Positions 259 through 2,021 of a stretch of DNA of 4,207 nt are shown one piece after another. Each line of letters starts with the position of its first letter. Position 1 is the first letter of the stretch. A model generated the notes under the pieces. It had not been told where the DNA came from. It searched no databases and saw only the letters and a list, made by a program, of their open reading frames with translations. A program made the translations under genes and the position numbers. Source of the DNA: Escherichia coli (GTDB lineage Bacteria; Pseudomonadota; Gammaproteobacteria; Enterobacterales; Enterobacteriaceae); NCBI RefSeq assembly GCF_003334815.1, contig NZ_QOWO01000078.1, one strand, 5' to 3'.

Positions 259-855
259 TCACCGGAGAATATCTGTGATATCCACAAGTTTTCTGTCGCA
301 CAGCCAGTCCTGCGCTTCACGCACCACGCTACTGTCGGGTTTCACCGCTTTCAGCGATGATGCCAGTCGCTTGATCAACATAACCAGTTCCCGTGTCTGT
401 ATGTCCGGCATTGTCTCCGGCGGAGCAGAGGGACTCTCATTTCCGACGCCCATCCCATGCGCTTCCAGTGTGGCACGGACAAACCAGGCGGCATCGACCA
501 GTTGCTGGCGAATCCAGGTCAGATCGGCATTTCTGTCACGGGCTGCCATTCGCTCACCCGACAGCGCCTTGCTGATATGGCTGCGCACCAGATTATCCAG
601 GAGTTCCTGCGCTTCTTCCGGTGAAAAGCCACCTGGTATCTCTGTGCGCAACAGTCCTTTCCTGTACAGTAGCTGCAGCAGATCAATCTGCGACCGCACT
701 GCAACTATCAGTACATAACGGACAATATTCGCACTGGCGGTGGTTTCTGTATCATTCAGCAGTTCCTCCGGATCATTACCACCGGTATTGCAGAGCAACG
801 GCAACAGAGGTCGCATCCACACAGGAACCTGATATTGTTCGTCTGATTTCATCAT
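259..855 (-). CDS. Uncharacterised 198-aa protein translationally coupled to psiA (hypothetical leading-region protein)
   Basis: Minus-strand ORF ending at TGA 259..261. I place the start at ATG 853..855, which overlaps the psiA stop (ATGA) and has GGAGAA 6 nt upstream. The track's longer version begins at a GTG (886..888) inside psiA. The translation starts [21 protein letters not shown]; I recognise no domain in it. Confidence 0.75.
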   Translation of the reverse strand: MMKSDEQYQVPVWMRPLLPLLCNTGGNDPEELLNDTETTASANIVRYVLIVAVRSQIDLLQLLYRKGLLRTEIPGGFSPEEAQELLDNLVRSHISKALSGERMAARDRNADLTWIRQQLVDAAWFVRATLEAHGMGVGNESPSAPPETMPDIQTRELVMLIKRLASSLKAVKPDSSVVREAQDWLCDRKLVDITDILR

Positions 856-1571
856 ATTGCGTTCTCCAGCTTGTTCGGGATCATCCACTGCTCAAGTGCA
901 CGTACCTGTACCGGTGCACCACGACCGGCCTCACCGGCTTCAAAAATCAGCCGCCAGAGTGGTTCCTCCTGCCAGAAAAACCGGTCAAATGATGACAGTG
1001 ATGGAAAACGCCCGCACCACCCCCAGAAAATCGTTTCCAGATCATGCTCCTCAACAACACCAGACCAGCGGGACAACCAGCTTCCGACCGTGGCGGGAGT
1101 ATGAAACGCAAGGTCAATCTGCGCCTGAGCAAAACATGTCTGGTATTCCAGTTCCCGTCGTTCTGCCTCACGTTCCCGCTGGCGGCTGTATTTCTGCTCT
1201 GTCAGCGTGGTTTTCTGACGACGCCGCTCACCTTCACGAAAAGGAACGGACGGGAACAGACGATGCCCCGCATCGGATGGCAGGGGAAGAACACAGACTT
1301 CACCAAAACTTTCAATCAGTTTATCCACGGCAGCCAGCCACAGGAGACGGTTGCCATGAAATTCCTCCTTCGTCAGCGCAGGAGCAAAAAAGCGGAGATC
1401 GGTCAGCGAAATCCGGCGACTGCCATTCAGGCAGCGAAAGAAAGCGCTGGCATAAGGCCATGCTGAAAGTGTGCGTCCCTGACGACGACGTTGTTCGGTG
1501 ACAGCCACAGCCTGCATGGCGGCCTGTTGCTCTGCGCTGAGGGGGATCAGTGCCCGTGAACGTGCGCTCAT
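852..1571 (-). CDS. psiA: PsiA, plasmid SOS-inhibition protein A family (239 aa)
   Basis: 239 codons, the F PsiA length, lying immediately downstream of psiB as in known leading regions. ATG at 1569..1571 overlaps the psiB stop (ATGA) and is preceded by a consensus AGGAGG 6 nt upstream, inside the psiB 3' end. The N-terminal stretch [18 protein letters not shown] ... [19 protein letters not shown] fits my recollection of PsiA. Confidence 0.85.
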
Positions 1572-2002
1572 GCCTGACCTCCTTCTGCCATCAGGATATG
1601 GATGATGTCGTTAACACTGTACCCCTGCGCATCAAGTGTCGCGGCAAGCGCCAGCGTGTGACTGATAGCGACAGGCGTGAAGATATGTTGCACCTGAACG
1701 ACGGAGAAAGGCTGTCCACCACAATTCACCAGAACCAGCATCCAGAGCTGAGAGACGTCTCCCGGCGAACATAATGCCAGGTGGAAACGTTCGTGGGCTG
1801 GCGTGAAACGAACCTGGACGGGGAAAAAGCCCCCGAACTCACTGCCATACTCGCCATTCATCATCCAGTTAGCCGGTGCGTCCACTTCACGCATCACCTC
1901 GTGAGTGAGATTACGGCGCATATCGCTTCCCGCAGCACGGATATCTTCATATTCCTGTGCGTTCATGGACTGCAGGGCATTCAGGGTCAGTTCAGTTTTC
2001 AT
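1568..2002 (-). CDS. psiB: PsiB, plasmid SOS-inhibition protein B (RecA-binding anti-SOS protein), 144 aa
   Basis: 144 codons from ATG 2000..2002, with GGGAGA 7 nt upstream. The translation ([27 protein letters not shown] ... [36 protein letters not shown] ... [18 protein letters not shown]) matches my recollection of F-plasmid PsiB along its length, and 144 aa is the PsiB size. The track's extra N-terminal M is a GTG at 2003..2005 with poorer SD spacing. Confidence 0.88.
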
Positions 2003-2021
2003 CACGGTATCTCCCTTGCTG

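Follow-up and report, generated by a model that had tools for sequence, protein, structure and literature searches.

It is very likely that psiB is translated from an ATG codon served by its own Shine-Dalgarno (SD) sequence, that psiA and ygaA start at coupled ATG codons embedded in ATGA stop/start overlaps, with ygaA using one or both of two tandem ATGs, and that the GTG codons heading the longest open reading frames (ORFs) of psiB and ygaA are incidental. The three genes are located on a 4,207-nucleotide stretch of Escherichia coli DNA (hereafter, the window) that stems from the leading-region operon of a conjugative plasmid of the IncI1/I-gamma/K type. What we infer throughout is the codon actually used by ribosomes, both at psiB and at ygaA.

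The whole window, over its 4207 bases, is matched by more than 5000 enterobacterial plasmid records, with a full-length identity of 99.8% to an IncI-gamma/K1 plasmid of Salmonella. The PGAP annotation of this Salmonella plasmid, whose genes all lie on the minus strand, was collected and converted to window coordinates (Table 1). At locus L001 the gene order is ssb, DUF905, ParB-like, psiB, psiA, ygaA and ardA, psiB being immediately upstream of psiA. The gene annotated by PGAP as a hypothetical protein is named ygaA in a submitter annotation (LC567060) and in two papers. In the literature, the genes ykfF, parB-like, psiB, psiA, ygaA and ygbA are designated the ssi3 operon, and a table of plasmid pESBL places ygaA at the same coordinates and with the same ATG start (PMC4288162).

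Table 1. Genes, candidate start codons and related elements of the window (nt, nucleotides; aa, amino acids).
Feature	Position in the window	Strand	Remarks
DUF905 gene	partly inside the window	-	PGAP, Salmonella IncI-gamma/K1 record
ParB-like gene	2057..4015	-	PGAP, Salmonella IncI-gamma/K1 record
Conserved G+C-rich stem-loop (CCGCCCCG / CGGGGCGG)	2022..2044	-	loop of 7 nt; lies after the ParB-like stop and before the psiB SD
SD of psiB (AAGGGAG)	2011..2017	-	duplex with the 16S 3' end, -8.4 kcal/mol
In-frame GTG, longest-ORF start of psiB	2003..2005	-	one codon upstream of ATG 2002..2000
psiB	1568..2002	-	144 aa plus stop, from the ATG; PGAP coordinates agree
ATGA, psiA start over psiB stop	1568..1571	-	preceded by AAGGAGG (1584..1578) at 6-nt spacing
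psiA	852..1571	-	239 aa plus stop; PGAP coordinates agree
In-frame GTG, longest-ORF start of ygaA	886..888	-	11 codons upstream of ATG 855
GGAG SD of ygaA, within the psiA coding sequence	864..867	-	duplex, -6.4 kcal/mol
ATGATGA junction of psiA and ygaA	849..855	-	tandem ygaA ATGs interleaved with tandem psiA stops
ygaA ("orf198"; PGAP hypothetical protein)	259..855	-	198 aa plus stop, from the first ATG; PGAP and submitters
ardA	just beyond the window	-	PGAP, Salmonella IncI-gamma/K1 record

An earlier note on this DNA had placed the longest-ORF starts of psiB and ygaA at GTG codons (2003..2005 and 886..888, respectively), each with an ATG and a properly spaced SD just downstream. The first statement is borne out by the ORF listing, in which the longest psiB ORF extends over 1568..2005 of the minus strand (145 aa, GTG start, beginning MMKTELTL) and the longest ygaA ORF over 259..888 of the same strand (209 aa, GTG start). 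The second also holds, a GGAG being found 8 nt upstream of the ATG in both genes (2002..2000 and 855..853).

The psiB gene possesses its own SD, 52 nt past the ParB-like stop codon and directly behind the conserved stem-loop. In the minus strand, the SD AAGGGAG (2017..2011) is followed by ATACC, GTG (2005..2003) and ATG (2002..2000), so that the spacing from GGAG is 5 nt to the GTG and 8 nt to the ATG. Translation of psiB would thus proceed from ATG 2002..2000 by means of this SD, with its GGAG 8 nt away, and GTG 2005 would be merely the final three bases between the SD and the ATG. As for the stem-loop, an alignment of 12 contexts shows 2 pairs maintained by two-sided changes (C-G to U-A), and G-U pairing maintains several others. 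An Rfam search yielded one chance-level match and nothing more, and a scan for sigma-70 promoters and terminators found no more of these than were found in shuffled sequences.

The alternative that psiB begins substantially or mainly at GTG 2005, yielding a 145-aa PsiB either from a tandem start or from the GTG alone, was weighed against the conservation of the region, the protein family and an initiation model, and appears quite unlikely. Loci carrying psiB came from plasmid records with annotation, from look-ups of the protein and from scans of genome and metagenome contigs with DNA patterns; the degenerate psiB pattern retrieved just 4 loci from genome contigs, a Cedecea homologue among them, and the viral contigs scanned with a PsiB alignment gave just 1 locus. 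Upstream DNA was readable at 142 loci, corresponding to 34 distinct start contexts, and in all of these the ATG never varies. The SD is kept among the relatives as AAGGGAG, AGGGAG, AAGGAG or TAAGGA. The codon preceding the ATG is mostly GTG, and otherwise ATG (in the lineage beginning MNTELTLN), ACG (in that beginning MSSKLTLN), ACA (L137) or TCC (the Cedecea homologue). That most lineages have GTG or ATG, both start codons, at this -1 position favors initiation there, as does the position of GTG 2005, whose distance to GGAG is within working range; moreover, lineages exist with a spacer 2 nt longer, which brings the -1 codon (GTG or ATG) to the optimal 7 nt, and in one ATG-ATG lineage, whose first ATG has this spacing, gene callers are split between both forms. 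Against this stand the three lineages with ACG, ACA or TCC, in which the ATG is the sole possible start of psiB, and therefore an upstream start codon is dispensable.

The protein family points in the same direction. PsiB matches NCBIfam NF010255 (Pfam PF06290) over the full length of the profile, with 266.7 bits for a cut-off of 100, and positions 1-144 of the profile align with residues 2-145 of the GTG-extended ORF; thus, the N-terminus of the family is the ATG residue. Chain A of PDB 3NCT, the crystallised PsiB of plasmid F (E = 2.3e-80), begins MKTELTL, likewise at the ATG residue; this match suggests RecA binding and SOS inhibition for the PsiB of the window. Finally, a simplified initiation model in the style of Salis and co-workers, which combines terms for the 16S 3'-end duplex, the spacing and the start codon, gave sums of -9.30 kcal/mol for the ATG and -6.95 kcal/mol for the GTG, a codon intrinsically weaker and short in aligned spacing; the ATG is favored by 2.35 kcal/mol, roughly 3-fold. 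Taken together, these data moderately support ATG 2002..2000 as the conserved and probably dominant start of psiB, and some initiation at GTG 2005, at a functional 5 nt from GGAG, is possible. The extra residues claimed in the earlier note are right in number, 1 for PsiB (145 vs 144 aa) and 11 for YgaA (209 vs 198 aa), but the term 'spurious' is overstated for PsiB, as its GTG is disfavored only about 3-fold; with some initiation at GTG 2005 possible, the term is itself inferential for this residue.

Coupling by means of overlapping stop and start codons (ATGA or TGATG) is known from the trp operon of E. coli, UGAUG being another classical arrangement. Both downstream junctions of the window display an SD inside the upstream ORF together with a start/stop overlap, as expected for coupled cistrons. 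The PsiA protein matches NCBIfam NF010258 (Pfam PF06952) along its full length (residues 1-238; 376.5 bits, cut-off 243), and the ATGA joining psiB and psiA was kept at each of the 14 loci examined, even in the Cedecea homologue with its PsiA identity of 44%. At the next junction, the ATGATGA is composed of ygaA ATGs at 855..853 and 852..850, and of in-frame psiA TGAs at 854..852 and 851..849. As the earlier note had stated, the ygaA ATG overlaps the psiA stop, ATG 855..853 and TGA 854..852 forming an ATGA; this type of overlap was present in 11/11 junction contexts, displaced by one codon in two of them. Translation of psiA and of ygaA would then begin at the ATG that shares bases with the stop of the gene before it, the SD lying within that gene, in the manner of classical translational coupling, and the anatomy of the overlaps as well as their conservation suggest that each gene is functionally coupled to the one before it.

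Regarding ygaA, the minus strand reads GGAG (867..864), AACGCAAT and ATG (855..853), with a spacing of 8 nt from GGAG to ATG 855 and of 11 nt to ATG 852. The same initiation model gave -7.30 kcal/mol for ATG 855, -5.86 kcal/mol for ATG 852 and +2.17 kcal/mol for GTG 888, a penalty of 9.5 kcal/mol for the GTG relative to ATG 855. A start at GTG 888, by which the first 11 codons of a 209-aa protein would run over the 3' end of psiA, is judged extremely improbable. In its favor, no sampled relative carries a stop codon in the 11-codon extension, so that the frame stays open from the GTG onwards; all the relatives are, however, at least 92% identical across the junction, and thus the open extension gives no independent test. 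A handful of 209-aa entries is also found in the databases (e.g., EIH77884.1 and BAR88007.1). Conversely, GTG 888 has no SD, its best duplex reaching -3.8 kcal/mol at 14 nt. The codon arises where the psiA codons CAG (Gln) and TGG (Trp) meet, taking the final base of the former and the initial two of the latter, and it is unavoidable, because Gln-Trp can only be written as CA[A/G]-TGG, which always places [A/G]TG in that frame; GTG 888 would therefore be an incidental by-product of this PsiA dipeptide. The psiA gene of F-type plasmids carries the same GTG, derived from Arg-Trp (CGG-TGG), though no ygaA lies downstream.

The homologues of YgaA, retrieved with a full HMMER run over 1.84 billion representative proteins, provide further evidence on the N-terminus. 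YgaA is a mosaic, in that many small proteins have N-termini homologous to residues 12-85 of the extended ORF, and the called N-terminus falls at the position of M12/M13 in 26 of the 33 aligned homologues. The DNA context of four homologues was read: no in-frame start codon lies upstream in any of them, and in three the start forms an ATGA with the stop of the preceding gene. Of these three, one belongs to a prophage early region, another to a gene array with DUF2786 and DUF932, and the third to a short contig of 1.1 kb. The lack of an SD, the forced GTG and the N-termini of the homologues together argue that the 11-residue extension is not part of YgaA, and an ATG start over GTG 888 is strongly supported.

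The real start of ygaA would be one or both of the tandem ATGs, 855 and 852, which sequence alone does not separate. That ygaA begins at the second ATG (852..850), yielding a protein of 197 aa with the first ATG as an optional extra, is a reading to be taken seriously, though we regard it as somewhat improbable. The second ATG is the more conserved of the two, being invariant in 11/11 contexts, whereas two contexts lack the first, with ATT (L133) or ACT (L017) in its place; in these, psiA extends to its second TGA, so that the second ATG forms the ATGA overlap. Besides, the UGAUG arrangement provided by this codon is likewise a classical one for coupling. On the other hand, both the longer spacing to GGAG and the model sum disfavor ATG 852, and the 197-aa form of the window YgaA was found on 10 contigs as compared to at least 1000 for the 198-aa form. 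The distance to a conserved Glu bears on this as well: it is preceded by 5 residues when counted from the first ATG and by 4 from the second, as compared to 6 or 7 in most of the distant homologues.

Public annotation of both starts was also surveyed. In plasmid records annotated by PGAP or by submitters, the start is the ATG in 9/9 cases for psiB and in 4/4 for ygaA, the latter set including one record (L003) that lacks a psiB CDS. When about 15 billion collected proteins were queried for exact sequences, the counts were, for the PsiB of the window, at least 1000 contigs with the 144-aa form and 1 with the 145-aa GTG form; for the F-type PsiB, at least 1000 and 8, respectively; for the YgaA of the window, 1 contig with the 209-aa GTG form against at least 1000 with 198 aa; and for a second YgaA variant (L002), at least 1000 contigs with 198 aa and 0 with 209 aa. 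Systematic over-extension of psiB and ygaA starts in public annotation is thus contradicted by the data, and with it the expectation of the earlier note that automated callers would likely mis-extend both genes, the GTG form of each window protein occurring on a single contig. The view of the same note that the ATGs are the better-supported starts was upheld by the invariant psiB ATG, the absence of an SD for GTG 888 and the homologue N-termini at M12/M13. The note did not mention the second ygaA ATG (852..850), the psiB/psiA ATGA overlap or the ATG-ATG psiB lineage.

PsiB records named 'recombinase' were suspected of being GTG-extended, but start at the ATG in the 3/3 that were checked. Of the 145-aa PsiB database entries, most come from the ATG-ATG lineage rather than from GTG extension; only in this lineage do callers truly disagree, each form being present on at least 1000 contigs. 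No N-terminal protein or ribosome-profiling data for the start of psiB or ygaA were found in the searchable literature.

At the base composition of the window, an in-frame ATG, GTG or TTG upstream of the start and before the nearest stop is expected in approximately 56-64% of genes, and the window has such a codon in 2 of its 4 complete genes; the pattern of upstream in-frame GTGs is no more than chance, and is ordinary. The ATG starts are already standard in RefSeq, in Swiss-Prot and in published plasmid tables, so the finding is ordinary and already known, and the extra residues would alter no functional inference. Naive longest-ORF tracks are untrustworthy for starts, and modern callers already handle psiB and ygaA; the only real ambiguities are the choice between ATG 855 and ATG 852 of ygaA and the ATG-ATG lineage of psiB, each amounting to one residue.

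Compared with known systems, the window belongs to the group of the IncI1 leading regions (ColIb-P9, R64, pESBL), with the same gene order and no relevant difference: the psiB start region of ColIb-P9 (NC_002122) is 100% identical, and the published or annotated coordinates of these plasmids agree with the window in their ATG starts and 4-nt overlaps. The psiB-psiA pair of F/IncF plasmids (PSIB2_ECOLX; PDB 3NCT) shares with the window an identical hairpin-SD-start context (...CGGGGCGGCAGCAAGGGAGATACCGTGATGAAA...), a PsiB of 144 aa, the psiB/psiA ATGA overlap and an incidental GTG in the 3' end of psiA. F-type plasmids differ in that psiA is not followed by ygaA but by an unrelated 172-aa ORF, by hok-type genes or by nothing, and their PsiA is only about 64% identical to that of the window. 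With respect to coupling of the trp type, both window junctions have the 4-nt stop/start overlap and an internal SD, and the ATGATGA between psiA and ygaA offers both types of overlap together.

Regarding YgaA itself, the protein had no Pfam-A match even at E <= 10 and no NCBIfam match, and its PHROG matches were weak and to families of unknown function, covering residues 90-209 and 162-209, that is, the C-terminal half and end. An AlphaFold model built on 61 homologues was all-helical and of mediocre quality (pLDDT 68, pTM 0.38), and a fold search with this model against PDB and BFVD gave no match at E <= 0.001. From homology and gene context, YgaA may be conceived as the product of a third, coupled cistron that follows the SOS-inhibitor genes psiB and psiA, a mosaic, all-helical protein bearing an approximately 70-aa N-terminal module of a widespread family, and possibly acting as an early-entry factor for anti-defence or host takeover; we offer this proposal tentatively, as it is more probably wrong than right. 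The N-terminal module displays the motif VPxWM...NTGGN..EEL..D, and its family is likewise unmatched by Pfam-A and NCBIfam. The members of this family are small proteins, usually ATGA-started, from prophage early regions and from a gene array that is possibly plasmid-borne.

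The psiA/ygaA junction carries a tandem arrangement of start and stop codons (see table). In two relatives (L017 and L133), the first TGA/ATG of the junction is mutated, with the psiA frame reading CTA or TTA at this position; PsiA is consequently one residue longer, and the second ATG is the one that now carries the ATGA overlap, indicating that the tandem ATGATGA acts as a backup for the psiA stop as well as for the ygaA start. Further, some F-type plasmids (L011-L013, 2651-3169) harbor after psiA an unrelated 172-aa ORF (MQNARHPKTH…) whose start overlaps the psiA stop as TGATG and which is itself followed by a hok-type gene. 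From this arrangement, translational coupling to the psiA stop is predicted to recur with different downstream genes.

Features located in the window and its flank
Feature	Coordinates	Strand	Description
G+C-rich stem-loop	2022-2044	minus	arms CCGCCCCG and CGGGGCGG, 7-nt loop
ATGATGA psiA/ygaA junction	849-855	minus	two ygaA ATGs in tandem, alternating with two psiA TGAs in tandem
ygaA-ardA intergenic region, 462 nt	window 1-258 plus the next ~200 bases (2797-3258 of L001, a Salmonella IncI-gamma/K1 plasmid)	minus	folded as single-stranded DNA

YgaA (window 259-855; see also loci L145, L146 and L148) is built as a mosaic of three or more modules, spanning residues 1-74, roughly 70-136 and roughly 136-198 in the 198-aa numbering, each of which was found separately in many other proteins. 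The N-terminal module (VPxWM…NTGGN..EEL) occurs at the head of many small proteins lacking a Pfam family, and the ATGA overlap is the usual start of the genes bearing it, one of which lies in the early region of a lambdoid-type prophage, adjoining a ParB-HTH gene and an Ead/Ea22 gene.

Regarding psiB, ATG-ATG replaces GTG-ATG in the 'MNTELTLN' lineage (2500-2505 of L002, and 10 further loci), and the spacer is longer by 2 nt, thus placing the first ATG at the optimal distance of 7 nt from GGAG. Public gene calls for this PsiB are divided between the 144-aa form, which is the PGAP choice, and the 145-aa form, each in at least 1000 contigs. The G+C-rich stem-loop, which lies after the ParB-like stop and ahead of the psiB SD, is kept across every psiB lineage sampled; among psiB relatives, two pairs of the stem are preserved by C-G to U-A changes and several by G-U, and a Cedecea homologue retains the stem with a shorter loop. 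Since the coding strand shows no T-run after the stem-loop, an intrinsic terminator is not the obvious reading of this element.

The ygaA-ardA intergenic region forms a long imperfect hairpin, with a free energy of -105.4 kcal/mol (z = -3.76) that none of 100 shuffles equaled, consistent with a candidate single-strand promoter of the ssi/Frpo type located ahead of ardA. This region is cut by the window edge.
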